NCBI GenBank assembly: GCA_030038255.1
Contig: JASHPH010000170.1
Coordinates: forward strand, 4,204-68,203
DNA: 64,000 nt
Direction: 5' to 3'
Origin: Candidatus Sulfotelmatobacter sp.
GTDB taxonomy: Bacteria; Acidobacteriota; Terriglobia; Terriglobales; Acidobacteriaceae
In this document: one piece after another, positions 17,099 through 38,059 of the stretch
How positions within the stretch are numbered: position 1 is the first letter of the stretch
Layout of the letters: the number at the start of each line of letters is the position of its first letter
The notes under the pieces: model-generated
What the model was told of the DNA's origin: nothing
The model's database searches: none
The model's input: the letters and a program-made list of their open reading frames with translations, nothing else
Made by a program: the position numbers and the translations under genes

Positions 17099-18381
17099 AC
17101 ATCGACGGAAAACCACTTGTCTGGCTGAATGCGAAGCGTCTGCGCGCCCACGGGACAATCCTTGCGGCGTGCCTGTGGTCGCTATATGTGTGGACGCTCG
17201 CCACGCCCGGCCTGCGAGATCGCAACGGCAATCTTAAGGGAACCGATTTTCTGCACTTCTACACGCTTGGCTCGCTGGCGATCGAACATCGCGGGACTGA
17301 TTTGTACGACATGAGCGCGCAGGCAGCGCTGGCCGCGCAGCGCGTCCCGCAGTCTGCCGGCATCCGGTACTTGCCGCTGTATCCGCCGCATGTCTCGCTT
17401 TTCTTCGCGCCGCTGGCACTTCTTCCCTATCCTGTGGCGCTGGCGCTGTGGTGGGGATACACCACACTGGTCTACGGTATTTGCTGTTACAGCCTGTGGC
17501 TGGCGTGTCCGCGATTGCGCGAATACGGCCTGCTCGTGGCGATTCTTGCGGTTGCTTTTCCAGCGTTCTTTCACTTGATCGCCTGGGGACAAACTTCGGC
17601 CCTGGCATTGGCGTGCTTCACGGTAATGTTCTTCCTTTTGCGCGAGCAGCGCGAATTTGCCGCGGGACTCGTGCTGGGTTGCCTGATTTTCAAGCCACAG
17701 TTGGGATTGGCAGCCGCAGCCATTTTCATCGGCATCGGCGCATGGAGGATTTTGGGCGGAGCAGCGCTCTCGGCAGCGGTGCAACTTTTGGGGGGAGTGG
17801 TCTACTACGGCGTGGAACCGCTGCGTCGCTGGTTCGACCTGCTGCGGAACATTCGCGCGGTGATGCCGTTAGCCGAGCCGAAGCCTTACCAGACGCATTG
17901 CCTGCGGACGTTCTGGTCGATGCTGATCCCGTGGCCGCAATTCTCTTTCGTCCTCTACCTCCTGAGTGCAATCGCGATCCTCGGGCTGACGATCGCCTGC
18001 TGGAGGAAGGGTTCATCAGCGCCGCTAGCTCTACGCTATTCGGCGCTGCTCGTAGCAACGGCGCTGGTGGCGCCGCATTTGACCGTCTACGATCTGGTGA
18101 TCCTGGCTCCGGCATTTTTGTTGCTGGCTGACTGGCTGTTGGGGCAGCCGTCAAATTCTTCCACTCGATGGCTGGGAACCCTGCTTTACCTGATCTATGC
18201 CCTGCCGCTGATTGGGCCGCTGGCGCGATGGACGCACGTGCAACTGTCGGTCATCGCTATGACCGCCAGTTTGTATTTAATCGCACAGATGAGCCGCGCG
18301 GCAGGATCAGAAATCAGTGGCCGAACAGAAACGTCAGCGCTTCGGGAAAACGCCGCGCCCACGCGGATTCGTGATGCGTAG
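17095..18381 (+). CDS. GT87/DUF2029-like membrane glycosyltransferase
   Basis: The ATG at 17095 overlaps the upstream stop (ATGA). [26 protein letters not shown] after TM1 and a polytopic profile are typical of the DUF2029 mannosyltransferase-like family. Confidence 0.6.
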
Positions 18382-19168
18382 CGCCGTCTTCAATGACTAA
18401 GCGCAATCGCTTTTCGTCGAGTCCCCGGTGCCGCAGAATACCAGCGAGTTCGCGGACATCGTCCACCACGCTCTGATCGCGATCCTTCCGTCCGGCTTCG
18501 GCAGTGCCTACGCCGAGAAAAACGCGTTCCGGCCAGCACTGGACCTTGCGGCTCTCCTTGATCGCCTGCCGGCTTGAGGCCCACAGCGAGGGGCTTTCGA
18601 GCAGCAGCCGGCCAAAAACTCCCGGGCGCACGCTGGCGGTGTAAAGGGCGACGAGCGCGCCGAGAGACGAACCGCCCAGGCCGGTGTTCTCCGGCCCGGT
18701 GGCGACCCGGTAGTTGCGAGCCACAAACGGCATGACTTCCTGGATCAAGAATTTCGGATAACGGTTGCCCTGTGCCCGCAGCGTGATCGGGTGCAGCGAT
18801 CGGTGCGGCATGTATTCGCGAATGCGGTCTCGACCGGCGTTATCGAGACCTACAATGATCATCGGGGGAGTTGCTCCCTCGCGGATCAGCTTGTCCGCCG
18901 TCTCATCCACTTGCCACTCGACGTGAGTGAATGAGCTCGCTGCTTCAAACAGGTTTTGGCCATCGTTCAGGTACAGCACCGGATATCGCCGCCCGATGTT
19001 CGCGGGGTCGTCATAGCCTGGGGGCAGCCAAACGCGAAGGTAACGGCTGTTGCGGAACGTGCGGCTGCGAAACTGGTGCAGGCGCAAGTCTCCCGTTGCC
19101 CCTTGTGCAGCGGTAAACGGTGCGATGGCCGGAACAGGGAAGCTTTGAGTCTGCTGGATTTCTGCCAT
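18314..19168 (-). CDS. Alpha/beta hydrolase, 'putative esterase' (enterochelin-esterase/IroE-like) family
   Basis: YLRVWLPPGYD...YPVLYLNDGQNLF... and GGSSLGAL (GxSxG nucleophile elbow). 284 aa. Confidence 0.7.
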   Translation of the reverse strand: MAEIQQTQSFPVPAIAPFTAAQGATGDLRLHQFRSRTFRNSRYLRVWLPPGYDDPANIGRRYPVLYLNDGQNLFEAASSFTHVEWQVDETADKLIREGATPPMIIVGLDNAGRDRIREYMPHRSLHPITLRAQGNRYPKFLIQEVMPFVARNYRVATGPENTGLGGSSLGALVALYTASVRPGVFGRLLLESPSLWASSRQAIKESRKVQCWPERVFLGVGTAEAGRKDRDQSVVDDVRELAGILRHRGLDEKRLRLVIEDGATHHESAWARRFPEALTFLFGH

Positions 19169-19224
19169 TCAGGGAAAAAGTTCTTACAGAATACAACGGC
19201 AGGCTGTGGAAGGGGGCTTAGACC

Positions 19225-19689
19225 TCATGCCCTGGCCGATCTCACCTTCACGGCGACCGCGAGCAGGCTGATGGAGGCGATTAGTGCCAGCGAAATCAGG
19301 CACAAGATGCACCACGTCGTCAGAACATACGCCTCGATGTAGGTCAGATACAGCGCAAAGGCCAATCCGGCAAATGCCGCTCCCAGCAGCCAGTTTGGCG
19401 TGTCCGGCCGCGAGCGCCACAACGTGGCCAGCAGAAGCAGCGCGGCATATCCGGCGACGCCCATGCCTGCCACTGGAATTCCCATAATGCTTGAGTACTC
19501 GCTGCGGTTCACAATATCGCAACTGAACCTCTGGCTGAAATCGCAGAATTCCGTTGCCGACCTGGCGTAATGGCGTTGCAGGGACACCGCGGACACGATC
19601 AATCCGGCCGCGGCAAGGAGGGCAATCAGCGCAAAGAGAATTCGATTAGACTGCGGACGCGCTTCAGTTGTAACGCTAGACTCGCTCAC
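19225..19689 (-). CDS. Vitamin K epoxide reductase (VKOR) family membrane protein
   Basis: The GTG at 19689 overlaps the upstream TGA (GTGA). Loop cysteines CDFSQRFSC and the active-site CILC lie in a 4-5 TM protein. The longer track ORF (to 19947) would overlap the thioredoxin-like gene. Confidence 0.7.
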   Translation of the reverse strand: MSESSVTTEARPQSNRILFALIALLAAAGLIVSAVSLQRHYARSATEFCDFSQRFSCDIVNRSEYSSIMGIPVAGMGVAGYAALLLLATLWRSRPDTPNWLLGAAFAGLAFALYLTYIEAYVLTTWCILCLISLALIASISLLAVAVKVRSARA

Positions 19690-20105
19690 GGCAAGGTGCA
19701 CCCAGTCTTGCCGCTCAGAGTATCCATCTCCAGGATTCCTTCTTTCGGCGGGTCCCCACCAAATTGCCAGCTGGGAAACAGTTTGACTCCGGCCATCTTG
19801 CACGCCGGTGCAAGCTCTTTCGAGTCCTTGATGGCGCACTCTACGTACGTAACGTAGCGGAACGAGGCGCCAAACTTTTCTTTCTGCTCGGCGCAATGCG
19901 GGCACCAATAGAGGCCGTACATCTTGGCGCCCCTCGCCGTCAAACACTGGGCGAAGGCGTCGTACTTGTGATTCCTGTGATACCAGCCGAGGGCGTATGC
20001 TGCAGCCAGCAGAATCGCAATCGCGCCCCAGGTGAGATATTTCTTTCCCTTTCCGTCATTCGACCCTTCGCGCTCCGCTTGCCGTCTTCTCCGCTCTTCT
20101 GACAT
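19686..20105 (-). CDS. Membrane-anchored thioredoxin-like protein (CPHC)
   Basis: One N-terminal TM helix (YLTWGAIAILLAAAYALGWY) followed by a Trx-like domain with YWCPHCAEQKE. Equivalent to the Trx domain fused to bacterial VKORs. Confidence 0.65.
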   Translation of the reverse strand: MSEERRRRQAEREGSNDGKGKKYLTWGAIAILLAAAYALGWYHRNHKYDAFAQCLTARGAKMYGLYWCPHCAEQKEKFGASFRYVTYVECAIKDSKELAPACKMAGVKLFPSWQFGGDPPKEGILEMDTLSGKTGCTLP

Positions 20106-20179: not shown

Positions 20180-20950
20180 TCAATGCGGCGGCGCAAGAGC
20201 TTTACGAATGCGATCGTTGATGTCAGGATATCCGGCGTTTTCCACGATCCATTTTGCGGATACGAAGCGCCGAACATACCTGTAGAACTTTGCGTACTGG
20301 ATGTAGACCGGGGCCTCCACTTTTCCCTTGTCTTCAGCCGCAAGAAACTTATTAAATTCGTCTACTGTTATCTTGTTCAGCTCGTCTTCGCTGGTTGGAA
20401 GCTGACCACTCGCATCGATCGCCATTCCTTCGAAAAGCCATTGCGGACCCATCCCGTCCTCGGTGCCGAACAGTCGCGTCGCCACGATGGCATGGGCGCT
20501 GTGAATCATCTCATGGGTCATGAGCTTCTCGTATTCGTCGTCACTCCAGCGATCGGGCCCGTAGAGGCGAGTGAAGTTCTCTTTGTAGATTTCGGGGGAT
20601 ACGACATAAAGGGTTGCTTTTTGCACAGTGCCGCTGAAAGTGGCGGGCACGTCCGTGTCCTGTGCATGGAACACGGTCGCGAGCATCCGACGAGCCGACT
20701 CTGAAGTACAAAACACCTCCACCTTGCTCGCGATGTCCTCCACTTTCAGTTCAAACCCCATCTCCGCAAAATACTTTGCAACCTTGTTTCGAGCGCTTGC
20801 CGCAAATCCCGAGAAAGGCTCCCTGCGTTGCCCGCACTCGTGCAACGTAACCTGCGGTTCTGCCGGCTCGGCCAGCCCCGATGCGGCAAAGCTCAACAGA
20901 CAGCAAATCGGTAAAACAAATCTTCTCGGCATTTTTCTTCGTGGAAGCAT
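20180..20950 (-). CDS. Secreted zinc metallopeptidase-like protein (Peptidase_MA_2-like, HExxH)
   Basis: The ATG at 20950 (or 20932) gives the signal peptide MLPRRKMPRRFVLPICCLLSFAASGLA. HEMIH is followed by WLFEGMA, the HExxH...EG.A arrangement of MA-clan peptidases. Confidence 0.5.
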   Translation of the reverse strand: MLPRRKMPRRFVLPICCLLSFAASGLAEPAEPQVTLHECGQRREPFSGFAASARNKVAKYFAEMGFELKVEDIASKVEVFCTSESARRMLATVFHAQDTDVPATFSGTVQKATLYVVSPEIYKENFTRLYGPDRWSDDEYEKLMTHEMIHSAHAIVATRLFGTEDGMGPQWLFEGMAIDASGQLPTSEDELNKITVDEFNKFLAAEDKGKVEAPVYIQYAKFYRYVRRFVSAKWIVENAGYPDINDRIRKALAPPH

Positions 20951-21005
20951 GGCGTCGGCGATTGCACTTATCAAGCGGGTAGCTTTTCCACTTATATCAC
21001 GACCG

Positions 21006-21995
21006 CTAGGCCACGACATTGAGCGCGCCGGGAAGCACATCGAGTTCCTCACAGTGCAGCGTGAGCACTTCACCATCCACCATGACATCTACGGGAGCGT
21101 CCAGATTGAACTCGACGCGACGCACGCCCTTGCGCTCTGCCAACCGGTGCTCGATGTGCGTGCCGTCGTAAAGTCCGGGGAGATTGCGAATCAGCCCCAA
21201 GCGCCCGATCGGTCCCCAGCGAACGTATTCGATCAGGCCGTCGTCGATCTCAGCCTTGGGTGCAATCATCATGGAACCACCGGTGAACTTGCTGTTATTG
21301 AAGGTGAGAAACAGACATCGGCGTTCGTCAAACTTGGCGTCGCCTTCGACCCGCAGTGGAAACGCGCGGCGATTAAAGCGTGCAAGAGTCAGGAAAATCG
21401 AACTCAGGTATCCAAATTCTCCCCAGCCGCTGAAGCGCCGAGCGCGCAGTGTGGCGACGTCGGCGGCAAATCCCATGCTCAACAAATTGATGTAATAGAG
21501 AACGCCACCACGGTGACGCAGGCGCAGCACGTCGGAGACACGACGGCGATTGGCGAGCAGTGACTCAATCGCGTATTCGACACCGCGATCACTGAAGTCG
21601 CGCAGGAAAGAATTGCCAGTGCCGAGCGGAAGAAATGCCAGCGTCGGCCGCTCGCCGCCCTGAGCCGAAGCAGCGAACGCCGGCGGGAAAAGACCGTTCA
21701 CGATTTCGTAGGCGGTACCATCGCCGCCTACCGCAATAAAGTTGCGAATGCCGTGCGCATAGGACTCGCGCGCGATTTCCGTGGCCGCGCCCGCAGCGCG
21801 GGTTTCAAGAACCTCGACCGTAATACCGCCGGCCCGCAGCCGTTCCAGCGCAGGGTTCAGCAGCTTGACGCTGCGCCCGCCTCCCGCGGCCGGATTCACA
21901 ATCGCAAGATAGGTTTGCCCCAAGATTTCGAGATCCCGCTCGGCTTGAGCCTGGCTACAACCCCACGATTGCTCCACGTTCAAGCGACTTTCCAA
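21006..21995 (-). CDS. Diacylglycerol-kinase-family lipid kinase (YegS/BmrU-like)
   Basis: [14 protein letters not shown]...[17 protein letters not shown]...LGTGNSF (DAGK catalytic domain). The ATG at 21995 overlaps the upstream gene by 41 nt; an in-frame TTG at 21923 is an alternative start. Confidence 0.75.
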
Positions 21996-23664
21996 TTTCC
22001 TCCCCCAGCATCTGCCGTTTCACTTTCATCGAAGCCGTCCGGGGAAAGTCCTTGTCCCACAGCAGGTATCCACCCACGCGTTTGAAGTCGGGCAGGCGGC
22101 GGTTGCGAGCGGAGATGTCCTCAAGCAACGCCGCGTCGAAATGCTGGTTCTGCTCGAGTCTGAGGACCAGAACCAGAATTTCACCGCCCAGTTCCTTTCG
22201 CGGCCAGATGTAGTTTGCAGCAAAAACGCAATACTCCTTCACCGGCAGGCCGTCGAACACGTTTTCAATGTCTTCCGGGTAGATGTTCTTCCCACCTTCG
22301 GTGACAACCATGTTCTTCTTGCGCCCGAAAAGCTGCAGATGTCCGTGGCCGTCGAAGCGGCCGAGATCACCCGTCAAGAGCCATCCGTCGACGATCGTTT
22401 CCAGCGTGAGTTCGGGATCGTCGAGATAGTGCGACATCACGGTAGCGCTGCGCGCGGCGACTTCCCCGATTCCCTCGGCATCCGGGTTGAGAATGCGCAG
22501 TTCGACCCCAGGCAGCGGCTTGCCGACCGTGTCGGCGCGGAACGGTTTGAGATCGTTGAGCGTGAGCGCGGTGCCAGCTTCGGTCAGGCCGTATCCGTTG
22601 ACCACCGGGATGCCGAGATCGTAGAAGAACTGCATGGTCGAGGGCTCCATGAATGCCCCGCCCGTGATCAAGGCCAGCAACTCTCCACCGAATGCGCGAT
22701 GCACGCTGCTCAGCAGCATCCGGCTGAGCTTCACCTTGGGCCGGCGCCGCGTCAGCAGTTTGTTGGTTGCGACCATCGTGTTCAGAAACGCGTGTTTCCA
22801 CGACGGAAGCTCGTCGAACTTGGCGCGCAAGCCGCGCTCGAGATTCTTCACAATCATCGGCACCAGAGAAACGTAGGTGATGCGGTATCGCACGAAAGCG
22901 TCGCGGACGAACTCCGGACGCAGCGTGCGCAGATGCACCACGCACGCTCCGCACACGAACGGCCCGATGAAGCCCACCATGAAATCAATGGCATGGTTGG
23001 TCGGGAGAATACTCAAATAGCGCACGCCCGGCCAGAATGGATACCACGCCGTCAGCGCACGGCACTGCTCGAGGTAATTTTCGTGAGTGAGGACGCAGCC
23101 CTTGGGCGGCCCGCCTGTACCCGACGAATAAACGATGCAGGCCATGTCCTCCCGCTGCCGCATCACGAAGTCGGGTGCACCCTTGCGCCGGAAGTCTTCC
23201 CAGCGGAACGCACCCGCCAAATCCGCGCCAAGCGGGGCTTCCGTGACCAGCACAATTCGGGTACCGATCTTCTGGAAATCCGGCGATTGCGTGATCGCCC
23301 GCCACAGATGGTATTCGACGATGAGGATCTTGGCCTTGGAGTGGGCGAGCAGTTGCAGATGCTCGGCCGCGCTGAGTTTGTAATCCAGCGGCACGAGCAC
23401 ACCGCCACAGTAAAAGATGGCGTAGGCTGAAATCAGCCACTTCGACTGGTTCGTCATGATGATCGCGGCACGGTCGCCGGCATCGAAATCCGCATCCTCC
23501 AACGCGCGTGCCAGCGGCAATGCAATTTCTTTGAAATCGGAATACGTCAGGCGGACCTTTTCGCGGTCGCGATCGGCCTCGATCAGGCACACTTCCGAGG
23601 AAAAACGGTCAAGTGCATCGCGCAAAGCCGCGCCCAGACATGTGTACGAGCCGAGATCGAGCAT
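21955..23664 (-). CDS. Long-chain fatty-acid AMP/CoA ligase (adenylate-forming), copy 2
   Basis: AMP-binding motif [60 protein letters not shown]. 569 aa. Confidence 0.8.
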
Positions 23665-23775
23665 ATGAAAACGCCGATTTCAGTGTAGATTGCAAACTAA
23701 GTTAACCGCAGACCGCCGTAAAGCAATGTGCCCTAGCAATCAACAACCGGGAGTCAGCGATCAATAGGGAATCCT

Positions 23776-24024
23776 TTACAACCGTGCCTGGATTTTGCCC
23801 GCCAGGGTGCGGAAATCGCTCACGCCCTGCAGTTCATAGTCGGGCAACTCAACCCGGAAATGATTTTCCAGCTTGGTCAGCAGATCGAGCGTCTGCAGGC
23901 TGTCGATGCCCAGCGCCTTGAAGAAATCGTCGTCGGGAGAGAGTTTTTCGCGCGGCACCTTGAAATGCGCAGCCGCGAGCGTGAGGATTTCATCTAGCGT
24001 CTTTTCGGCAGTTTCCATAGACAT
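23776..24024 (-). CDS. Free-standing acyl/peptidyl carrier protein
   Basis: 82 aa with the phosphopantetheine attachment motif LGIDSLQTLDL. Confidence 0.8.
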   Translation of the reverse strand: MSMETAEKTLDEILTLAAAHFKVPREKLSPDDDFFKALGIDSLQTLDLLTKLENHFRVELPDYELQGVSDFRTLAGKIQARL

Positions 24025-24069
24025 TTATTGTAGTTGAGTCATTCGACTTTGGTTCGCTTCAGTCCGAAC

Positions 24070-24894
24070 TCACGGCAAATAGGGCTGCGCATCAGTGCTC
24101 TCGACAAATTTCTTCAGCCCGGCTTCGACTGCAGGAGAAGTGAACAGCTCGCAGAATAGATCAATTTCTCGCTTCAGTTCGTCATGTGGAATCGGCTTGA
24201 TGAACCTCTTGGCGGCCGCGGCGGTGTGCCGGTCAAACTTGCCGATCTGCGCCGCAGTGGCTCGTGCTGCTCGCAACGCTTCGCCTTCGCCGACCACCTG
24301 GCTCACCAGTCCGATCTGCTGCGCCTTTGTGGCATTGAAACTACGCCCCGTCAGCAGCAGGTCGCGCACGATGGCATTGCCCAGATCCCGCTTCAGTCGC
24401 GGGATTCCACCGAATCCGGGAATCAGTCCCAGCCTCAGTTCGGGGAAGCAGAAGCGGGCCATCTTGTCGGCGATCATCAGGTCGCAGGCCAGGGCAAGCT
24501 CGAATCCCCCACCGAAAGTCACGCCGTGCACGGCGGCGATCGTGGTAAGTGGCGAGGAATCGATGCGATTTAGCACGTGATGGATTCTCTGCAGAAACTC
24601 ACGCACGCCGCGTTGAGCCGCGGCTTTCTCCATGGCTTGCGAGCGTTCATAGAGCTCCCGTAAATCGGCGCCGGCGCAGAAACCGGCCTTCATTTCGCTG
24701 TAGATGATGAGCGCATGCGCCTCCCGCTCCAGATCGCACAGGGCGGAGGCGAAGGTCTCGAGTTCGTCCAGTGACAGGGATCCCAACTCGTTGCAGGGCT
24801 CGCGATGGAGCGCGAGTTCGATCACTCCCGCTTCGATCTTCCACGACAGCGCCTGACCTTGACACTGTTTCACGCTCATTGCGACTCCGCACAC
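24070..24894 (-). CDS. Enoyl-CoA hydratase/isomerase (crotonase) family protein
   Basis: FCAGADLRE...AAVHGVTFGGGFELALACDLMIA...F.FPELRLGLIPGFGG, the oxyanion-hole motifs of crotonases. The start could be the ATG at 24879. Confidence 0.8.
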   Translation of the reverse strand: MCGVAMSVKQCQGQALSWKIEAGVIELALHREPCNELGSLSLDELETFASALCDLEREAHALIIYSEMKAGFCAGADLRELYERSQAMEKAAAQRGVREFLQRIHHVLNRIDSSPLTTIAAVHGVTFGGGFELALACDLMIADKMARFCFPELRLGLIPGFGGIPRLKRDLGNAIVRDLLLTGRSFNATKAQQIGLVSQVVGEGEALRAARATAAQIGKFDRHTAAAAKRFIKPIPHDELKREIDLFCELFTSPAVEAGLKKFVESTDAQPYLP

Positions 24895-24897
24895 ACC

Positions 24898-26544
24898 TTA
24901 CACCGCCTGCTTCACGCGGTACATCTCATCGATTTCGTTCTTCATCCTTGCCGCAATCAGTTCGCGCTTCAGCTTTCCGTTCGCCGTCAGCAGGCCGTTC
25001 TCAATGGAGAATGGCTCAGGCCGCAAGCAGAACGCGCGCACCTGCTTGTAATGCGGTAACTGTGGATTGACCGCATCGAGGGCGGCTTGTACCCGGTCTT
25101 GCGGCGCACTGCCCGTAACGATCGCAGAAAGATATCCGCGCCCGTTGCCAACCACCACGACTTGCTGTGCACCCGGCAGATGGCGCGCGATTTCTTCCTC
25201 GATCGTTTCCGGCGCGATCTTGTGGCCGGAGCCGAGCACGATCAGATTCTTGATCCTCCCGGCAATCCGCCAGTTGCCGGAAGCATCCATCTCGCCCTGG
25301 TCGCCGGTGTGAAACCACCCTTCGCGCAGCACTTCCGCCGTCTGCTGTGGACGATTCCAATATCCGGGAAAGACATTGGGTCCGCGCACGACGATTTCGT
25401 CGTTTTCGCTCAACCGCATCTCCATACCCGGAATGGCCGGTCCCACGCGCCCAGGCACAGGATTGGAGGGGTCATCCATGGTACAGATGCCCGTCGTTTC
25501 CGTCAGGCCGTAGACCTGCAACACTGGGATGCCGAGCATGGCGAAATAGTCCTGCGTATCGGGAGTCAGCGGCGCCGAACCGCTAATCAGAGCCTTCAGA
25601 TTTTCTCCGAGCATTTTCCTTCTGATCGTCGGAAACACCAGCGAATTTGCCAGCCACAACCAGATCGCATCGCCCGCTTGCGGTTGAGTTCCCTTCCGCT
25701 CCCACGCGGCCTTTGCACGTAAGTACACGGCCTGCGTCAGCCCACCCTTTTGCGCGACCTGCTCGTCTACGCCTCGGCGCATGCGCTCGAGCAGTTGCGG
25801 CACGTTCAGGAAGTAATGTGGCGCGACCACAGGCATATCGTTCGGAATCTTCGTCAGATCGGCGTTCAGCGTGACCAGGCTGCCGCGCTTCAGAAACGTC
25901 AGCACGGCAATCCACGACGCGCAAAAACTGAACGGCAAGTAATGAAAGACGCGATCCTGGCCCGTGCGGTCGCCCATCAATTGGTCGAGCCGCGCTGAAG
26001 TACGCTCGAGCATGAAGCCGACATTCGCCGCCGTGAGCACAACGCCCTTCGCCTCGCCCGACGTGCCCGAGGTATAGATGATGGTCACCGCATCTTCATT
26101 GCGAACCTGCGGCCGATCCAGTTGGACGCCATCCACACCGGCGAAAATCTCGTCGAACAGAAATGTGGGCGGCGCACTGTGCCAGCTCTGCCGTATGGAA
26201 TCACGAAGCGCCGCATCGCCGCAGCACACCAGCGAAGGCATGCTGTCTTTCATCATGGCAACCAGTTCGACGGGAGCCTGCCGCGAGTAAAGCGGCACCA
26301 CGATCAGGCCCTCGGCCATTGCCGCCAAGTCCATCGCAACCCAGCGAATGCTGTTCGCGGCCAGCAGGCCGCACCGGTCGCCTTTCTGCAAACCTCTCGA
26401 AGCAAGAAACGTACGTGCCTTGCGAACCATCTCGAGGAGTTCGCTCCCGGTTACGCCTGCCACTTGACCGCTGTGGATTTCCTGCAGCACGGTCGTGCCC
26501 GCACCGGCTTTCAGTTGCGAAAATATATCTCCGACGAATGGCAT
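24898..26544 (-). CDS. Long-chain fatty-acid AMP/CoA ligase (adenylate-forming), copy 1
   Basis: IIYTSGTSGEAKGVVLT, VYGLTET, TGDQGEMDASGNWRIAGRIKNLIVLGSGHKIAPETIE. 548 aa. Confidence 0.8.
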   Translation of the reverse strand: MPFVGDIFSQLKAGAGTTVLQEIHSGQVAGVTGSELLEMVRKARTFLASRGLQKGDRCGLLAANSIRWVAMDLAAMAEGLIVVPLYSRQAPVELVAMMKDSMPSLVCCGDAALRDSIRQSWHSAPPTFLFDEIFAGVDGVQLDRPQVRNEDAVTIIYTSGTSGEAKGVVLTAANVGFMLERTSARLDQLMGDRTGQDRVFHYLPFSFCASWIAVLTFLKRGSLVTLNADLTKIPNDMPVVAPHYFLNVPQLLERMRRGVDEQVAQKGGLTQAVYLRAKAAWERKGTQPQAGDAIWLWLANSLVFPTIRRKMLGENLKALISGSAPLTPDTQDYFAMLGIPVLQVYGLTETTGICTMDDPSNPVPGRVGPAIPGMEMRLSENDEIVVRGPNVFPGYWNRPQQTAEVLREGWFHTGDQGEMDASGNWRIAGRIKNLIVLGSGHKIAPETIEEEIARHLPGAQQVVVVGNGRGYLSAIVTGSAPQDRVQAALDAVNPQLPHYKQVRAFCLRPEPFSIENGLLTANGKLKRELIAARMKNEIDEMYRVKQAV

Positions 26545-26566
26545 GATTTCTCAGAAAGCAAAGTCG

Positions 26567-27976
26567 CTAGCTGTACGCCGCCACTAACTGGCGCAAGGAG
26601 TCGTTCATCGGCGGCAAGTAATCTTCCCACCCCCACTCGCCGCGGCGCGTCGGAAACTCGGGATAGCACCGCTGCACCTCTTCCTCAAAATAAACACCCA
26701 TTCGCGCCATGACTTTCAGATTTCTTACCACCGTACGCGCAATTCCGTCGGCGATACGCTCGCCTTGCGTGGCCAGCATTTCGAGAGCGGCCAGCAATCT
26801 GGGTTCGAGATCGGGATCGTCCACGTTCATCAGCAACTCCTGATGGCCGCGCTCGCGCATCAGGTTGCGGATGCGTTCGTCCATGGTGATTCCCGCCGAA
26901 GGCACCAGCGCTGGCATCGAAGTCACAATGCCGTGATAGCGCGACGACGCCATCAAGTGACAGGCGCGCAGAATGCTAACCAGCTCGTACATGTTGTACT
27001 GATCCGAGGTCAATACCGGCACGCCTCCGAGCTTCTCCGAAATGCGACTAGCCGGGCGCGCATCCAGGCGCTCGGTCGCAACCAGAATGACGAACACGGT
27101 GCGCTGCTTGCGGAATGCATCCACCGCATTTGCGATGGAGGTCAGATAGTGTTGATAGGCGCGGTCGGCAGCCGGTCCGGAATTATGAAAGTAGACCGTG
27201 CGGTAGTGGCTGTCTGTGTAGGCTCCAGTCAGACTGTGCAGCGCGTATTTCGCCACCGACGCCTTCACCGGCCACTCAAACGGATTGATGGGGCAGACCA
27301 CCAGGACGGGAGTTCGACCGTCCCAGCCAACCTGCCGCAAGACGCTTTGGCCGTACTCCGCAGGCCGCGACTCGAAAGTCCACGCCGTGTCGGTGCCGAG
27401 CTCCGTAGGCACTCCCAGGTCCCGCAGAATGGTTCGCGATTCTTCATTGCGCGTGATGATGAGCGAATTCTTGCAGTACCGGCTGCACATCTTGGCCACG
27501 AGCGGATCCATGTGGCCGGCTTCGGCGCCGTAGCCGACGGAAAGCTTGTTCTCGACCGCGGCAATGCCAAGGGACCCGATCATCATGGTGGTCAGGGCAT
27601 TGGCAAACTTGCTCTTGAACATGGAGCCTTCGCAGGCCACGACGCCATGATGCTGCGGCACTTCCTCCGCCAGAAATGGCGGGAAAATGTCAGGCAGGTG
27701 TACCTGCCGCGTGCCGTCGAAGTATCCCTTGGAGAATTCGAACACCTGGCTCATCACGCTGAAGTCGACGCGCTCGGCGCCGAGGATGTGACGGATCTGA
27801 CGCAGCATTTCTTCGACGCGCACGTCTGATCCCATGTTGCGCGTGCCGTTATAGCCAGCGAAAAGAAGGTTTAATTTTTCGCCAGACCGCCAGCGTTTGC
27901 CGGCCCCGAGCATCCACCGGGCTTTGGCGCGTTCGATGTTGCCGCTGACCCACGCCTCCAGAATGAAGTCCATCAT
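26567..27976 (-). CDS. Polysaccharide-pyruvyl-transferase-like protein (tentative)
   Basis: The ATG at 27976 overlaps the upstream TGA (ATGA). The N-terminal [21 protein letters not shown] resembles the GYyG..N.GD motif of the PS_pyruv_trans family. 469 aa, longer than typical members. Confidence 0.45.
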
Positions 27977-29106
27977 GCGGCCGTACCTCCGGCCTTCGCG
28001 GGCCAGGGCGCGTACTTGTACTGGAAATGATTTTCGCGGCTGAATTTCAAGAGCGCATAGCTGTACTGTGAAAACGGCACCGGCTGGCGCCCAAGCTCTG
28101 ACGTCACGCGCCGGTTGTCGAAAACCGTGTTCCACACCAAGTACGGCATGAACACTTTCAGGAGCGAAGCGCCGTAGCCGAGTGCTCCCTTGCGATTGGA
28201 GAGAAAATTCACGGAACGAGTGAAAGGCTTCTCGGTGAAAGGCAAAAATACCGGAGCGCGCTTCTGTTGGGCCGCAGCCAGAGCGGTGGTCAACTGGCGG
28301 AATGTTTGCGATGAAGTGCCCGACGAAAGATGGTACGTGTCGAACTTCGGTTGATCTTTCTGATGCAGCGCCGCAATCGCATCGGCCACGAAGTCCACGT
28401 TGACGATATCGATCTTGTCGGTAGGGCGGAAGGGCAGCGCGGGCAACCCTGCAAGAAACACAAACGACTTCACCATATCAAACTGTGTGGTGGCGGCGTA
28501 ACGGCTGTCGCCGAGCACGATGCTGGGGCGAAAAATCGTTTTCGGCGTATCCGGCAGCAGCACGCGCGTCATGTGCTCGCAGAATTTCTTTGTCCGCGCG
28601 TAAGGATCGTAGTCCGAGCGGTTCCAGTCGATTGCGGCATCTTCGGTTACGACTTCGTTGCTGCGCTTGCCGGCCACGGCCACCGTGCTGACTTCGCTGA
28701 AGCGGCGCAGGCCGTGGTAGTGTTCGGCGTGGCGCGCCAGCGTCAATACTTCGAGCGTGCCGCGCAGATTCACGTTCAGGCAGCTCTTTTCCGATTTGCG
28801 GTTCAGCGAAGCGGCGCAATGAATCACGGAATCGGTCGTATGCACCAGGCGGTCGTATTCATCGCGGCTCAGGCCAAAACCGGGCGAAGTCAGATCGCCG
28901 ACGAACACGCGTATTTTCGTCTGCAGGTACTCGTAGAAACGTGGAAACTCCAGATGCAGCTGCATTGCCTGCCACAGGCGCAACTGCGCCTCCTGCAGAT
29001 CGCGCGCTCGCACCAGCAGGTTCAGCGATGCGCCGTATCCCTCCAGCAAGTTGGCGGCGACATGCGCGCCGATGTATCCGGTCGAACCGGTCAGGAATAT
29101 CGCCAC
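27973..29106 (-). CDS. SDR-type thioester/acyl reductase (NAD_binding_4-like)
   Basis: [21 protein letters not shown] (Rossmann TGxxGxxG), ..LNLLVRA.., catalytic YARTK (YxxxK). The architecture resembles terminal reductase domains. Confidence 0.7.
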
Positions 29107-31430
29107 GTTGCTCCGTTGGTCCCGGTCTTTACGGCGTCGCCGTTCGTAGGCGCAAGTTGAAAGCTACGAGGCGGGCGGGCTTCGAGCGGCCTGCCTTCGA
29201 TCAGCGGATAGGTCCACCGCCGCAGCGCCGGAATATGAACGTTAATCCAGTAGTCCCACCAATCGAGCGAGCGCGTGTCGTAGCCGAAATCCTTGCGCTC
29301 TTCCGGCACAAGCGCGTACGACAGTTTTTCGATGTTCTCCGCGGCGAAGTCATGCTCGTTCAGCAAAATGAAGGGCTCAAACAACTCAATCAGCTTTTCC
29401 ACACGCTCCAGGTTGCGCTCGGCTTTCGCCAGCGGTGCCTTCTTCAACGGCAGGGGCGACATGATGCGCTGAATCGACTTTACGATTGCTCTCTGTGCCG
29501 GCGCCGACATGCGGTTGTAGCGCTGCTTCGAAACCGGAATCGCATCAAAACGCAGGCGCAGCCAGGATTCCAGTCCTTCCTGGGCGCGGTAGTGGCGGCG
29601 ATGCGCGAGCGAGGTCAATTCGATGGACCGCCCCATGTCGCAGGGATTCGTGACGGATGTCGCCAGCTGATAAAGCGGATCGTGCCGCCGTTCCATCACG
29701 GCAGCGGCGATCAGTGTCATGCCCGCGCAAACCGCATCCACCGGAATGATGTCGAGGCGCTTGCTCTCGTTCGACGGCAACTGCCGGAAATAGGTGCCCA
29801 GAAGATATGAGAGCGAGGCTGAGGTGTTGATGCCCTCGTTCCATCCGCGAAACGGTTTAGCCACCGAGGTCTCAACAATTGCCGGGCGCACCACCGCCAC
29901 CGGCAATCCCGCGCCGTATTTCGCGATGAGCGACTCGGCCAGGCTCTTGGTCAGCGTATACGTATTCGGCCAGCCCAGTTCCTTGGCGCGGCGTGTGCCC
30001 GCTTCGGTGAGGTAGGTCTTCAGCCAGCGGACACGGTTCTTGCGAATCTGGTTCTCCAGAGCCGCGCCCTGCAGGCCTTTTGCCGCATGCTCCTTCGCTA
30101 GTGACTGCATGCGCAAGCCGGAGGTCACTTCGGCGCTTTCGGATTGTACTTCGGCCTGCTTGATGAGCTCATGTAGCGCGTTCCACTCGCGCTCGGCATC
30201 GAACTCGGCCAGTCCGCGAGGACTGTAGTTGGGAACCAGTTTTTCGCTGACGCGCCCATCCTGCTCGCCGGCCACGTAACAGGTCGAAAGATGCAACAGG
30301 CCGGAGTGGCCTGTGGTGCGAACGAATTCGAGAACGTTGAGCGCAGCGTCGGTGTTCGTGGCGAGCGCGTCCCGCAGATCCGGATTGAAATCCGTCAGCC
30401 CGGAACTGTTCACTATCAGATCGAGATGTTTCTGCAGGCGGGCCGCGACCTCAGGGCTCAGCCCCAGCCCCGGCTGGGTCACATCGCCTTCCACGACTTC
30501 GATTTTTTCGTGCAGAAAATCCGAAAGCCGGCTTCCATAGCGCTCGAACAGCGGATCGAAAACAGGTGAATCTTCCACCATCTTCTCGAAGCGGCGTTCG
30601 GCGGGATTCGACTTTTGCCGCCGGATGAGCAAATAGATCCGCTCGATGCCGGGCAGGTCGAGGAGCGTGTTGGCCAGCCAGACCTTGCCGATGAATCCTG
30701 TAACGCCGATCAGCATGACATGTCTGCCCGCAAAGGCACGGCGAACGGAAAATCCCTGAGCCTGCCGGCTGCTTTCAAAATGAACGATCGGCCGCACCGG
30801 CGCTGGAACTTGCCGCTCGGCGGGAATTGTCGCGGCACGCAGATCGTCGAGAGAAATGTCCAGGTGACGTGCCAGCGTCTTCGGTGCGCGGCGGCCATCG
30901 GGCATGTTTTCGCGGAATGGGGCGAAAGCTCCGCGGGGGCGGATGACCGGCTCCAGCAGCCGGCCCGTGGCCGTGCCATCGCGGAACTCCAGGCGATTGG
31001 CGACGATGTGCTTGACGCCCAGATGTTCCGCCAGCGGCCGCATGATGTGATCCAGGGCCTGACTGACGAGCACGACATCGACCCCGCTTTGCACCAGTTC
31101 TTGCACCTTCCGCACACCTTCGCGCTTCAACCTCGGCTTCAGCTTGTACTGGAAATACTCGTCCCCAAGCAAGTCGAGCCGGTCGGCCGAGACTCCGCGC
31201 AAAGCCGTGTGCACCACGCGAGTGGCAAACTTGCGGTTCGTGGAATAAAGGAACGGGCGCAGCAACGCCATCAGGAAGATGAGACCGCGCCGCCGGAAGC
31301 GCTCGGTGAAGGTCTGGGCGTTCCAGGTGAAGAAAGCCACCGGGCGGACTACGGTAAGGTCGAGAAGACTGCCCTCCACCCGCCAGTAGACGGTGGGGGC
31401 CGCACTGGAATTGTGGTTTGGCGGTTCCAA
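29091..31430 (-). CDS. Fusion protein: N-terminal HAD-IB-like domain (degenerate catalytic motif) plus fatty acyl-CoA/ACP reductase (male-sterility NAD_binding_4) plus C-terminal FAR-type domain
   Basis: Residues ~15-190 are HAD-IB-like, but motif I reads WRVEGSLLD instead of DxDxT. Residues ~235 onward: [20 protein letters not shown]...[18 protein letters not shown] (YxxxK). 779 aa. Confidence 0.7.
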
Positions 31431-31587
31431 ATCGTTTATCGTCCGGGGTTCAGGGTTACCTCAGCTCCCAGACGAAACCTATATTGTAAACAATTGAGGG
31501 GATTGAGCGAAGTGGAAGTCGAGCAGTTTCCATGCGGTTACCCGACTCATAAAGCACACGCCGTGGAAAACCGGCCGATTAGGCTCC

Positions 31588-32697
31588 CTACAGCGGCGGA
31601 GGCGCCATGCCGGAGGTCGCACCCGCCCGGACCGGCATCGCTGGCACCGCAGGATACAGGACAGCGCTCAGTTGGGGATATCGTCCTGCAAAGAAGTATA
31701 TGGAATATGCAGGAAAAAACACGATGGCGGGCACGGACACCAACGACACCAGATAGAGAAAAATTCCCAGCAAAATGCAGCCCACCACGATTGCCAGCGT
31801 GATGGTGTACACGTTCCACGTCAGACCTGCGGATTTGCCCGTCAGGATGGCAAGAAGGCTGAGTCCAACGGTAGGAATGGCAAAAAACAACCCCACGATG
31901 AGCGCGGCGATTCCAATGATGATGCCCACCACGATCGCGAGCACGATCTTCATCGCAATGTAGCCGACATAGGCTCCCATCTCAGCCTGCATCATGGCCC
32001 ATAGACGCCGCCAGCCCTCGAACGCGTCAACGCCTTCTAAAGCCATCTGGGGAACGACAAAATCCTTGGTCAAGACAAAAATGACTGCCGTGGCCAGCAG
32101 CCAGGCAAGAAAGAACGAGAATAAGAAGACTCCGCCGACTACCAGCGGAGCCACATGCTCCTTTGGTTGCTTCAGCCATCCGTTGGCGAAGGCAAAGGCC
32201 AACGGGACGCCAATCAGCACCGCGAGGCCTGCAAAAGAAACCACAACGTAAATCAGCTTCCACACGAAGTATTGCCACCCAGGGCCCATGCGACGGCCCC
32301 AGCTCCAGCGGATGTGACACTCTCTCGCGATAATGCTGTCGAACAGAACGAAGCGCATCACGCTGCTCACATACATCAGAATGATCCCGATGGCGAATGC
32401 GGCCAGGACGGCAGCCACGGCCGCGGACATAATCGCCGCCATAAGAGCGGGATCGATCCCCAGGGATCCGATACCCGGAAAGTTTGACCATGGGCCCGGG
32501 ATTTGGGTGTGCGGCACAGCTCCGCCATGCGCGGGAAAGTGGAAGTTGTTGCGATTGCATCCGTTGGAGCCAAGTTCTCCCGCCAATAGCCCAACAAACG
32601 CCAGCTTCGTCCACTGCCCGATCCGGAAGGGCTGGAACAGTTGTTGCTTCGTGTGTTCGATGGCAGGCGTGATCGCGTCGGCGGCGGAGATCGGCAA
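31588..32697 (-). CDS. Polytopic membrane protein of unknown function
   Basis: 369 aa with at least 6 predicted TM helices; TTG start. No motif recognised. First gene of the same-strand lipid-type cluster. Confidence 0.5.
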   Translation of the reverse strand: MPISAADAITPAIEHTKQQLFQPFRIGQWTKLAFVGLLAGELGSNGCNRNNFHFPAHGGAVPHTQIPGPWSNFPGIGSLGIDPALMAAIMSAAVAAVLAAFAIGIILMYVSSVMRFVLFDSIIARECHIRWSWGRRMGPGWQYFVWKLIYVVVSFAGLAVLIGVPLAFAFANGWLKQPKEHVAPLVVGGVFLFSFFLAWLLATAVIFVLTKDFVVPQMALEGVDAFEGWRRLWAMMQAEMGAYVGYIAMKIVLAIVVGIIIGIAALIVGLFFAIPTVGLSLLAILTGKSAGLTWNVYTITLAIVVGCILLGIFLYLVSLVSVPAIVFFPAYSIYFFAGRYPQLSAVLYPAVPAMPVRAGATSGMAPPPL

Positions 32698-34416: not shown

Positions 34417-34440
34417 ACGTCACCTCTACTTCTTAACTTC

Positions 34441-34737
34441 TTACTTCGCAAACGGCCGCAATACCATCAGGCGGAAACTGTCCGCCCAGATCATGTTCAA
34501 CATGACGAGCACAAACAAGGTGCCGGGAATCAGCGCCAGCCGCAGCGTCGATTTCTCGTCGCGCAGATGCATGAAGAACATGACGGCTAGATAGGCCTGA
34601 ATCACGGCCAGAATCAGCATGCGGCCAAGCGAAGGCCCCATCGCCATGGCGACGACGACCTGGATGACAGCGATGGCAAGAATCACTGCGTAAACAATGT
34701 AAGTGGTACCCATGCCGTTCGAGTTTTGCGCGCTCAT
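34441..34737 (-). CDS. Cytochrome c oxidase subunit IV (bacterial small-subunit family)
   Basis: 98 aa, 3 TM helices (YIVYAVILAIAVIQVVVAMAM...AVIQAYLAVMFFMHL), located directly after the subunit III genes. Confidence 0.65.
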   Translation of the reverse strand: MSAQNSNGMGTTYIVYAVILAIAVIQVVVAMAMGPSLGRMLILAVIQAYLAVMFFMHLRDEKSTLRLALIPGTLFVLVMLNMIWADSFRLMVLRPFAK

Positions 34738-34779
34738 TCTGTGCTCCTCTTTCTTTGTTACGCGAGCTTTGTGTCCAAG

Positions 34780-35406
34780 CTACCGCTTCATATTCAACAG
34801 GTAGATCAACGGCACCACGAACATCCATACCAGGTCAACGAAGTGCCAGTACAGAGACCAGATCTCGATGTGCCGGAAGGCGTAGCGCCCGGCCTTGTAG
34901 CCGGAGCCGACCACCAGCAGGGCGATCACGCCGCCCATGACGTGCGCCATGTGCAGACCGGTTACGGAAAAGAACGCGGCGCCAAACATGGGCGCACCCC
35001 AGGGATTCTGGAACATGCGAACGCCTTCGCCGATAAGAGACAGCCATTCGCGGACGTGCAGCACGGTAAACAGAAGACCCATACCGGCCGTGATCAGCGT
35101 CCAGCGAAACGCCCCAGCGCGATCGTCGTTCCGCGCGTCTCTGACGGCAAACAGTACCGTCAGGCTGCTGCTGACCAGGATGAAGGTCATGATCAGCGAA
35201 TTCCAGATGCTGCCCGACTCGAAAACCAGAGGCCAGTCCGCGGCCGAGTTGCGGATATATCCGTATGCGAACAGGACCGCGCCGAACGTGCAAGCGTCCG
35301 AAATGATAAACAGCCACATCACGAGTTTGCTGGAAGGAATGGCAAACGGGCGTTCTTCCATGACTCCCGCGCCATGTACGGCATGATCCATTGTCGCTTC
35401 GCTCAC
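34780..35406 (-). CDS. ctaE: Heme-copper oxidase subunit III
   Basis: 208 aa. WLFIISDACTFGA...FFSVTGLHMAHVMGGVI...YWHFVDLVWMF is typical of subunit III. Confidence 0.8.
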   Translation of the reverse strand: MSEATMDHAVHGAGVMEERPFAIPSSKLVMWLFIISDACTFGAVLFAYGYIRNSAADWPLVFESGSIWNSLIMTFILVSSSLTVLFAVRDARNDDRAGAFRWTLITAGMGLLFTVLHVREWLSLIGEGVRMFQNPWGAPMFGAAFFSVTGLHMAHVMGGVIALLVVGSGYKAGRYAFRHIEIWSLYWHFVDLVWMFVVPLIYLLNMKR

Positions 35407-35437
35407 AGTGCCTCCGTTGAAATTCAGGTTCTATGGC

Positions 35438-36142
35438 CTACAGCTTCAGCCACAAAACGAACAGCAGATAAACCCACAACGCACCCATGAAATGCCAGTA
35501 ATACGAGGTCGCGTCCACCGTGCTGCGGCGCAGAGGCAGCACGAGGATACTCGATGCAGTACTGCGGAACTTCACGATGACGCGCGTCAGGCCCCCCAGG
35601 CCACCCAATACGTGAACTGCATGGACGCCGGTCAGCAGATAGAAAAAGGAACTGTTGGGGTTGGTCGGGAGGTAAAGGCCCTGCGCCCGTAACTGCAGCC
35701 ACGCCACATACTGCCCTGCTACGAACACGAGGCCGAGCAGCAAGGTCGCGTTCAGCCAGAGCATGGCCGGAGCACGATCGCGTTGCTTCCCGCGCATCGA
35801 ATCTGCAACACGATGGCGGGCGAACTCCAGCGTGATGCTGCTCGCGATCAAGGCCAGCGTGTTGAACACGAGAATCGGGGGAAGCGTGATATGGGTCCAG
35901 TCGCTGTAGCCGCTGCCTTCGCGCACATAGAGCGCGCTGGTAAGCGCGGCAAACGTCATCGTGATCGCGGCCAGCCCAACCCAGATTCCGGTCCGAACGG
36001 GCTCACCTTTGGGGTCGGCTACCGCTCGCAGATCACCAGTCTCCGGAACGAGTCCGCGGAAGCCTCCGCCGCCGTTTCCGTCGTGCAAACGTTCCTGCTC
36101 TTCCTCTTCGTGTTGAACTGGCGGTGGTAACGTCGTTGCCAT
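35438..36142 (-). CDS. Second heme-copper oxidase subunit III family protein
   Basis: 234 aa. FFYLLTGVHAVHVLGGL...YYWHFMGALWVYLL carries the same family signature as the downstream gene. Confidence 0.7.
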   Translation of the reverse strand: MATTLPPPVQHEEEEQERLHDGNGGGGFRGLVPETGDLRAVADPKGEPVRTGIWVGLAAITMTFAALTSALYVREGSGYSDWTHITLPPILVFNTLALIASSITLEFARHRVADSMRGKQRDRAPAMLWLNATLLLGLVFVAGQYVAWLQLRAQGLYLPTNPNSSFFYLLTGVHAVHVLGGLGGLTRVIVKFRSTASSILVLPLRRSTVDATSYYWHFMGALWVYLLFVLWLKL

Positions 36143-36225
36143 TGATGGTCCGATTCCCTTCCCTTACTCGATTCGTTGGCGCTCGTTTATTTACTGCCGA
36201 GGAATGCCAAGCCGCCGTACTTCGG

Positions 36226-37998: not shown

Positions 37999-38059
37999 TG
38001 CCCTTTCCCCCGTTAGAGTCGGAACTTGCGTTGTTGAGCTCGTTAGGTTTGCGGTTTAG

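Follow-up and report, generated by a model that had tools for sequence, protein, structure and literature searches.

What product could be assembled by nine lipid-type genes that lie side by side on one strand and match no named pathway? This is the question raised by positions 21006-32697 of a 64,000-nucleotide stretch (the window) of contig JASHPH010000170.1, from the acidobacterium Candidatus Sulfotelmatobacter sp. (assembly GCA_030038255.1). We report that eight of these genes, at 21006-31430 on the minus strand, form an arrangement that is far beyond chance and very probably represent one conserved lipid-biosynthetic operon. In the reading that we tentatively prefer, with a probability of roughly one in three, the operon would combine a fatty acid with phosphoenolpyruvate (PEP) into a glycerolipid-type precursor, via an enolpyruvyl ether and with no use of glycerol phosphate.

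An eight-gene unit conserved across phyla

The list of open reading frames (ORFs) reproduced the nine minus-strand genes of 21006-32697 together with the junctions described in the initial annotation, and Pfam and NCBIfam profile searches were run on all nine products. Every domain assignment made earlier was recovered with Pfam. The conserved unit consists of the following genes, given with their Pfam matches.

29091-31430, minus strand: gene 1, fusion of a HAD-like domain with a fatty acyl-CoA reductase (FAR; NAD_binding_4 and Sterile domains), 779 aa; PF12710 3.9e-13, PF07993 1.1e-52, PF03015 1.8e-10
27973-29106, minus strand: gene 2, stand-alone thioester-reductase-type short-chain dehydrogenase/reductase (TR), 377 aa; PF07993 6.8e-42
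26567-27976, minus strand: gene 3, pyruvyl-transferase-like enzyme (PT) of probable GT-B type, the signature gene of the cluster, 469 aa; PF04230, 31.9 bits against a cut-off of 25.3
24898-26544, minus strand: gene 4, ligase lig5 (AMP-binding and AMP-binding_C_3 domains; FadD11/ACSL-like), 548 aa; PF00501 1.1e-56, PF23562 4.3e-09
24070-24894, minus strand: gene 5, crotonase-fold enoyl-thioester hydratase (ECH_1), 274 aa; PF00378 1.4e-43
23776-24024, minus strand: gene 6, free acyl carrier protein (ACP; PP-binding), 82 aa, with a DSL phosphopantetheine site (GIDSLQTLDL); PF00550 7.3e-12
21955-23664, minus strand: gene 7, ligase lig8 (AMP-binding domain), 569 aa; PF00501 5e-65
21006-21995, minus strand: gene 8, lipid kinase of the DAGK/YegS family; PF00781 2.7e-23, PF19279 8e-25

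FAR and TR overlap by 16 nt, and TR and PT share an ATGA overlap, in which the PT start codon (ATG at 27976) gives a protein of 469 aa, the same as in its homologues. Gaps of 22, 3, 45 and 111 nt separate PT from lig5, lig5 from the crotonase, the crotonase from ACP and ACP from lig8, respectively. Between lig8 and the kinase there is an overlap or a short gap, depending on the start chosen for the kinase, which may be the TTG at 21995 or a later codon (about 282-303 aa, as called in relatives). Reading of the translations indicated that the catalytic motifs are intact across the operon enzymes, the HAD-like domain excepted. NCBIfam gave only sub-threshold matches for the operon proteins, and no curated equivalog names any of them.

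A total of 173 related loci were fetched from genome representatives, metagenomes (the best 80 loci in each of these two scans) and exact-protein look-ups, and completeness was counted in the 98 of them that extend far enough to either side of the PT gene. All eight genes from FAR to the kinase are collinear and on one strand in 88 of these 98 loci. The same-strand, operon-like unit proposed in the initial annotation is thus real, and its genes proved to be strongly co-conserved. The carriers are mostly metagenome-assembled genomes (MAGs) of Terriglobia, but also include Myxococcota MAGs of 71% GC and a contig of 38% GC, the gene order being kept across genomes of 38%, about 59% and 71% GC. 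At least 588 matches were confirmed in GTDB, and the unit is present in all of the best 80 species representatives. No cultured carrier of the cluster occurs among the matches listed, and protein searches with PT returned almost only unnamed MAG proteins.

The cluster varies in its outer members. The 38%-GC contig (L091) carries the complete unit with its order unchanged and a PT 45% identical to that of the window, and adds a ninth, overlapping gene encoding a PlsC-type acyltransferase (PF01553); the whole set lies among tRNA-synthetase genes. A Myxococcales MAG of 71% GC (L173), with relatives labelled Nannocystaceae or Myxococcota, has ten genes, namely a free-standing HAD-like gene, the eight-gene core and the acyltransferase. 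Two Acidobacteria-like contigs, as well as two more high-GC contigs with PT relatives labelled Myxococcota, likewise have an acyltransferase gene after that of the kinase. At the other extreme, a Pseudobacteriovorax MAG contains a compact form of four genes, which encode a 1014-aa FAR::Sterile::PT fusion, a crotonase, an ACP and a lig8-type ligase, without kinase, TR, lig5 or acyltransferase, and which adjoin a transposase. In a further contig (L084), a fusion of PT with a lig5-type ligase is followed by TR, an unassigned gene, a short-chain dehydrogenase and a protein similar to carboxylic acid reductases, without crotonase. The unassigned gene (4534-5256), whose position between TR and the short-chain dehydrogenase is conserved, encodes a 240-aa protein with no Pfam match that might replace the crotonase. 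Finally, PT occurs as a solitary gene, without the cluster, in two cultured bacteria, Schlesneria paludicola and Endozoicomonas atrinae, and in other genomes. The S. paludicola homologue (JH636435.1; L089), 52% identical to PT, is placed between an alkyl-sulfatase-type MBL gene and a gene for PEP carboxylase, the presence of which may be a coincidence.

Within Terriglobia, genes for a VKOR-family protein, an esterase and a GT87 glycosyltransferase are syntenic with no obvious functional link, and the cluster itself might be regarded as a set of neighbours gathered by chance or mere synteny, with no pathway in common. We consider this highly improbable. The order of the operon is maintained across phyla from 38 to 71% GC whereas its flanks are not, stop and start codons overlap, and the genes have been joined in three independent fusions, all of which makes a shared pathway very likely.

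The pyruvyl-transferase-like enzyme

PT scores above the gathering cut-off of PF04230 (PS_pyruv_trans), and most of its listed homologues carry a precomputed assignment to this family. A closer affiliation was not found with the named members of the family, since the CsaB model TIGR03609 gave 55 bits over nearly its whole length against a cut-off of 213, and WcaK, for which the cut-offs are 399 and 727, was matched at about 19 bits. The PT sequence has no match in the PDB at E<=1. An AF2 model built from 31 diverse sequences (pLDDT 95.9) matched only generic GT-B folds of the PDB, such as UGTs and UDP-GlcNAc 2-epimerases, with a TM of about 0.5, and hence gives no clue to the substrate. In the alignment of those 31 sequences R54, R177, D197, H349, D367 and R369 are invariant and R347 is nearly so; these conserved residues, which include an R-x-H pair, may correspond to the PEP site of the Pvg1p structure. 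An SSRYH motif was also read in the protein. The subfamily, of about 470 aa, is small, with 825 representatives (50% clustering) at E<=0.001 among 1.84 billion sequences.

The initial annotation had regarded PT as a late decorating enzyme, a view that is difficult to reconcile with its conservation. Across 84 close loci PT shows a mean identity of 85.5%, the highest of the enzymes and exceeded only by the short ACP, and it occurs in fusions of the types FAR::Sterile::PT (P0274), Sterile::PT (P0134) and PT::ligase (P0181), the ligase of the latter being of the lig5 type. As the best conserved enzyme, fused moreover to both FAR and a ligase, PT is probably central to the pathway.

Lipid-acting members of PF04230 have been described in other settings. 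Recombinant DxpH forms with PEP a pyruvate ketal (1,3-dioxane) on the 1,3-diol of a lipid tail in vitro (PMC12964715). The same ketal formation has been proposed for ChtnH, and for a PF04230 homologue of the megapolipeptin pathway the proposed target is one hydroxyl only. These enzymes of the dioxanopeptin, chitinimine and megapolipeptin pathways resemble PT, as we read it, in being PEP-dependent PF04230 proteins that act on hydroxyls of long alkyl chains and not on sugars. DxpH and ChtnH, however, tailor lipopeptides made by polyunsaturated fatty acid (PUFA) synthases and non-ribosomal peptide synthetases (NRPSs) after their assembly, whereas the partners of PT are FAR, TR, the crotonase, ACP, the ligases and the lipid kinase. 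We place PT in a distinct subfamily. Unlike the DxpH/ChtnH setting, neither the cluster nor the Pfam-scanned parts of the window contain a ketosynthase, acyltransferase (AT) or condensation-domain gene of assembly lines or a PfaA-D-like gene, so that the locus is, as had been argued from the start, neither a polyketide nor an NRPS cluster.

Partner enzymes of the operon

The reductase part of gene 1 shows the architecture of alcohol-forming FARs, that is, an NAD_binding_4 Rossmann domain followed by a C-terminal Sterile domain, and its best PDB match is the fatty acyl-CoA reductase 7eoz (2.7e-41). Glycine-rich and YxxxK motifs were read in both FAR and TR. The latter, found in 88 of the 98 related loci, also matches PF01370 and reaches 125.6 bits with the thioester reductase domain TIGR01746, under the cut-off of that model.

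The HAD-like domain fused to FAR is of a different kind. The canonical motif I of HAD enzymes is FFDxDGTL; the corresponding segments are YWRVEGSLL (window) and FFRAEGVLL (ten-gene Myxococcales cluster), both without the nucleophilic Asp, and motif IV appears degenerate as well (YGAHGTD in the Myxococcales protein). The match to PF12710 spans positions 6-155 of the 189 of the model and misses both of its ends. In the Myxococcales cluster the HAD-like part constitutes a separate gene of 225 aa (6428-7105) with the same R-x-E-G motif, and the domain is absent in the 38%-GC contig. Since the nucleophile is replaced identically in two phyla, we read the domain as a conserved pseudo-phosphatase, which probably lacks phosphatase activity and might have a binding or scaffolding role. 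The earlier call of a HAD::FAR fusion stands as far as the domains are concerned. An ORF upstream of FAR in locus L118, considered as a HAD gene, turned out to be an Arg-rich wrong-frame artefact.

Both ligases contain the P-loop-like TSGT..KG motif. The best NCBIfam match of lig5 is FadD11 (233 bits, under the cut-off), with malonyl-CoA synthetase and FadD13 as PDB matches, while those of lig8 are feruloyl-CoA synthetase/fatty-acyl-CoA synthase and FadD13. With 37% identity to lig8 and 25% to lig5, the ligase of the Pseudobacteriovorax cluster is of the lig8 type, the one that stays with ACP in compact clusters. Both catalytic glutamates of the crotonase are present, read as GGGFE and FPE, with roles that presumably correspond to those in rat ECH. 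Its nearest solved relatives are short-chain hydratases, namely EchA8, methylglutaconyl-CoA hydratase and 3-hydroxypropionyl-CoA dehydratase, the last of which acts on acrylyl-CoA.

In the lipid kinase both DAGK_cat and YegS_C were detected and a GGDGT motif was read; TIGR00147 gave 102 bits, and no equivalog cut-off was reached. The PF01553 acyltransferase gene stands directly after the kinase gene in six loci (L091, L096, L140, L144, L152 and L173), and its product displays the PlsC-type motifs HX4D (NHVNLMD) and FPExxR (FPEAHRT). The initial statement that the cluster has no acyltransferase holds, therefore, for the window and fails for its orthologous clusters. The succession of kinase and PlsC-type acyltransferase implies a backbone with two free hydroxyls and suggests that the end product resembles a glycerolipid. 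In L152, what looked like a DAGK::PlsC fusion ORF was discarded as a wrong-frame read-through; the two genes are separate, lying 9 nt apart in L144.

A putative route through an enolpyruvyl ether

The general scheme initially drawn for the cluster, in which a fatty acid is activated, tethered, modified, reduced and then decorated or phosphorylated, is plausible. We also think it slightly more probable than not that an oxygen atom links a reduced fatty chain to a C3 unit derived from PEP. In our preferred and more detailed proposal, the ACSL-like lig5 would produce an acyl-CoA that FAR would reduce to a fatty alcohol. PT would move the enolpyruvyl group of PEP to the single hydroxyl of this alcohol and halt at the enol ether, a 2-alkoxyacrylate, which lig8 would load on the dedicated ACP. 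Hydration of the acrylyl double bond by the crotonase would yield 2-O-alkyl-glyceroyl-ACP, and TR, as a carrier-protein-dependent reductase, would reduce the thioester to 2-O-alkylglycerol. One primary hydroxyl of this compound would be phosphorylated by the DAGK-family kinase and the other acylated by the PlsC-type acyltransferase, whose gene other lineages have within the cluster and this genome presumably at another place. The end product would be an alkyl-acyl-glycerophosphate, with PT as the ether-forming enzyme and PEP as the source of the C3 backbone.

Such a route would need no enzyme beyond those of the fullest (ten-gene) cluster, with each gene product in its usual cofactor form. It explains the occurrence of two ligases and two reductases, and it would also explain a hydratase without an acyl dehydrogenase, because the double bond would come from PEP. 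The order of the FAR::PT fusion is the order predicted by the enolpyruvyl-ether route, and the existence of an acrylyl-CoA-acting relative of the crotonase fits the putative hydration step. The proposal would parallel the logic and domain repertoire of ether-lipid pathways (PMC9131029, PMC13012113), and the action of DxpH on a lipid hydroxyl with PEP may be counted as a parallel for PT (PMC12964715), as may the reaction at one hydroxyl proposed for the megapolipeptin homologue.

Several points weigh against this interpretation. The compact four-gene cluster has only one reductase, which would demand either that FAR acts twice or that the product is an acid. The PT::lig5 fusion (P0181) joins steps that are not consecutive in the enolpyruvyl-ether route, and locus L084, with its PT::ligase, short-chain dehydrogenase and lack of crotonase, fits a beta-hydroxy or diol logic equally well or better. 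The substrates of lig5 and lig8 are not assignable from their NCBIfam or PDB matches, and the solitary PT genes of Schlesneria, Endozoicomonas and other genomes indicate that the family is not tied to the pathway. To our knowledge, no PF04230 enzyme releases an enolpyruvyl ether, and reports of ether lipids in Acidobacteria and myxobacteria concern, as far as we know, sn-1 ethers, whereas the route would give an ether at C2. Moreover, the only lipid-acting member of PF04230 tested so far, DxpH, makes a ketal on a 1,3-diol (PMC12964715).

The ketal chemistry of DxpH underlies an alternative that we regard as possible but doubtful, and over which the enolpyruvyl-ether route is favoured. According to it, the cluster would produce a dioxane (pyruvate-ketal) lipid: a fatty (2-enoic) acid placed on ACP by lig8 would be turned by the crotonase into 3-hydroxyacyl-ACP and by a reductase into an alkane-1,3-diol, which PT would ketalise with PEP to a 2-methyl-1,3-dioxane-2-carboxylate. 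In the long clusters, lig5 would then activate this carboxylate, the second reductase would reduce it and the kinase would phosphorylate it, giving rise to a glycerol-free anionic head group. The PT step would have a direct precedent in recombinant DxpH (PMC12964715), the same being proposed for ChtnH. Each enzyme would perform a textbook reaction, the compact cluster of FAR::PT, crotonase, ACP and lig8-type ligase would amount to a complete pathway, the FAR::PT and PT::lig5 fusions would both join consecutive steps, and the short-chain dehydrogenase found in the place of the crotonase in L084 would be expected if the beta-hydroxyl matters. However, no version of the cluster contains a dehydrogenase or oxidase that could supply the 2-enoyl substrate, and no hydroxyl would remain after phosphorylation, leaving the PlsC-type acyltransferase without an acceptor. 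In addition, the known lipid pyruvyltransferases sit in PUFA-synthase/NRPS clusters, absent here, and we are aware of no DAGK-family kinase that phosphorylates a carbinol hindered in the manner of this ketal, which also counts against a ketal product. A diol-phospholipid, with the kinase acting on C1 and the acyltransferase on C3 of an alkane-1,3-diol, was considered too and rejected, as PT, lig5 and the second reductase would then have nothing to do.

Returning to the enolpyruvyl ether, a still more tentative corollary concerns PT itself, which might be a new type of ether-bond-forming enzyme that alkylates PEP with a fatty alcohol, the enol ether being then turned into glycerol in place. C2 (sn-2-type) alkyl glycerophospholipids would in this way arise independently of oxygen, with neither dihydroxyacetone phosphate (DHAP) nor AGPS nor PlsA/Ger involved.

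Comparison with known systems

No already characterised cluster was found to match, and a search of the open-access full-text literature returned no paper with this gene combination, which is absence of evidence and not proof of novelty. The closest described system is the elbABCDE cluster of Myxococcus xanthus (MIBiG BGC0000871). It comprises the HAD-like ElbB, the FAR-ACS-ACP-AGPAT protein ElbD, the NAD-epimerase-type proteins ElbA/ElbE and ElbC, whose function is unassigned, and the steps leading to the alkyl ether lipid, including the formation of the ether, are only proposed (PMC9131029; PMC13012113). Compared by repertoire, both systems are fatty-acid-derived and combine a ligase, an ACP and a FAR/thioester reductase; TR, with its PF01370/PF07993 matches, and the HAD-like part, which lacks the nucleophile, may correspond to the NAD-epimerase-family reductase and the HAD-like protein of elb. 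Both occur in Myxococcota and Acidobacteriota, and the AGPAT/PlsC acyltransferase has its counterpart in relatives of the window cluster. Likewise, elb-like clusters have kinase and acyltransferase neighbours, DAG-kinase genes adjoining them in sponge symbionts (bioRxiv 10.64898/2026.06.23.733905).

These similarities, together with the presence of our cluster in Myxococcota MAGs, could suggest a disaggregated elb-type ether-lipid pathway, in which the ligase, ACP, reductases, HAD-like protein, kinase and acyltransferase would act like ElbB/D/E of Myxococcus, and PT and the crotonase would only tailor the chain or the head group, for instance as a pyruvylated diol head group. We consider it unlikely. 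PT is the best conserved enzyme and is fused to FAR or a ligase, which would be unusual for peripheral tailoring, and the minimal cluster retains PT and the crotonase while it drops kinase, TR, lig5 and acyltransferase. PT, the crotonase, the second ligase and a DAGK-type kinase inside the operon are found only here, none of them having been reported in elb, and the four core domains fused in ElbD correspond to separate genes in the window, where the cluster has no acyltransferase. As no ElbD-type multidomain protein was encountered in the cluster, we have not filed it as elb.

The enolpyruvyl-ether route would share with the eukaryotic and myxobacterial FAR-GNPAT-AGPS pathway a fatty alcohol made by FAR, its ether linkage to a C3 unit, a reduction and an AGPAT-type acylation. 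If the route is correct, the C3 donor would be PEP instead of acyl-DHAP and the ether would be located at C2 instead of sn-1; in addition, a hydratase and a kinase would be required where the other pathway uses an acyl/alkyl-DHAP reductase. Among the cluster genes and their flanks, neither an AGPS (FAD-linked) nor a GNPAT domain was present. The proposed PT step also recalls MurA/MurB, where a PEP-derived enol ether is formed on a hydroxyl and its double bond is then processed. MurA differs in having an EPSP-synthase fold, in contrast to the probable GT-B fold of PT in PF04230, and the acceptor of PT would be a lipid, with hydration on a thioester taking the place of reduction.

Adenylation, carrier tethering and NAD(P)H-dependent reduction of a thioester are also the features of carboxylic acid reductases and NRPS-like A-T-R systems, from which the operon differs in that the domains are separate, duplicated and joined by PT, a crotonase and a lipid kinase. 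In genome mining, a ligase, an ACP and a TR would be labelled as NRPS-like, the adjacency of ligase and crotonase genes recalls RpfB/RpfF of diffusible signal factor (DSF) signalling, and the compact Pseudobacteriovorax cluster lies beside a transposase. The cluster might accordingly be thought to make a secreted or stored fatty-alcohol or aldehyde derivative (wax, signal or surfactant) through A-T-R chemistry, with the kinase and other genes only loosely linked. Such a product is improbable, for the surroundings are of housekeeping type (tRNA synthetases in the 38%-GC contig, cytochrome oxidase and glycolysis genes in the window), and the presence of the unit in every one of the best 80 GTDB species representatives is more in line with core lipid metabolism. 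Furthermore, the kinase and PlsC-type acyltransferase are translationally close to the other genes, and there is no conserved exporter, an MFS gene being located upstream in some relatives only. Conservatively, the cluster may be described as a variant of fatty-acid-reducing (ether-lipid-type) clusters, and there is a realistic prospect that its chemistry, whether ether-forming or leading to a ketal head group, is new.

Borders of the operon and other genes of the window

Two features lie at the 5' side of the operon.

31431-31587, minus strand: intergenic region of 157 nt upstream of FAR, the only long gap at the 5' side
31588-32697, minus strand: gene for a DUF7544 polytopic membrane protein (PF24400, 1.3e-61), outside the conserved unit

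The intergenic region, which corresponds to the DUF7544/FAR junction, is the probable start of the transcription unit and promoter region. A scan for the sigma-70 consensus found no match in it, and the promoter and terminator scan remained at or below background; a TACAAT-like hexamer visible in the region may be a promoter element. The tblastn comparison of the DUF7544 protein with all the fetched loci yielded no match, and its gene is thus a neighbour and not a member of the operon, which reduces the originally described set of nine genes to eight. The position upstream of FAR varies with the genome, being occupied in close relatives by dNK/AAA-like and MFS transporter genes. The DUF7544 gene appears as a lineage-specific replacement at the 5' border.

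At the opposite border, a 302-aa ORF (20180-21088, minus strand) overlaps the 3' end of the kinase gene. It has no Pfam match and only a weak NCBIfam match of HExxH/flagellinolysin type (21.8 bits), and it is absent from the relatives examined, the close ones having a 140-aa ORF in its place. Further downstream are the VKOR-family gene, the putative esterase gene and, on the opposite strand, the GT87 glycosyltransferase gene (17095-19947), whose synteny extends over most Terriglobia loci (L001-L083) without counterpart in other phyla.

Elsewhere in the window, genes for subunits I, II and III of cytochrome c oxidase are grouped at 34433-46129 with those for cytochrome c and a prenyltransferase of the UbiA family, probably haem O synthase. 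This set lies between an MBL-fold gene and a di-haem peroxidase gene, which are adjacent in the close relatives L001-L003, indicating a rearrangement or insertion. A sigma-54 activator with a C-terminal PilZ domain (PAS-AAA-HTH-PilZ; 47447-49258, minus strand) and a protein with HD-GYP-type HD_5, GAF and GGDEF domains (49610-52081, plus strand) form a back-to-back pair of cyclic di-GMP signalling genes. The regions 13549-17098, 40683-43239 and 43563-45017 hold predicted ORFs of 524, 587, 533, 334 and 484 aa with no Pfam match. Over its whole length, the window gave no hit in Rfam and tRNA scans.

Implications for lipid biosynthesis in Acidobacteria

The operon is a real, widespread and uncharacterised lipid unit. 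Peat and acid soils are rich in Acidobacteria of this clade, which are uncultured and whose lipids are known only indirectly; they are also suspected to be the source of ether lipids used as palaeoclimate proxies. A strongly conserved operon shared across phyla offers a concrete and testable candidate for a missing lipid pathway. The choice between the enolpyruvyl-ether and the ketal routes can be decided only by lipid chemistry, and the small size of the operon (8-10 genes, about 10.4 kb) makes its synthesis and expression feasible.

If the enolpyruvyl-ether reading is true, a glycerol ether backbone built from PEP would be new, and if the ketal reading is true, the novelty would lie in a phosphorylated 1,3-dioxane head group that serves as a membrane lipid and not as the decoration of a lipopeptide. 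Either of them would extend PF04230 from sugars to primary lipid metabolism. In the case of the enolpyruvyl ether, PT would moreover be a candidate for the enzyme that forms the sn-2 ether bond in two groups of lipids, the dialkyl glycerol ethers of bacteria and the branched tetraethers ascribed to Acidobacteria. We know of no enzyme for this bond so far, and PT might have a bearing on how the ether is formed in elb-type pathways as well.

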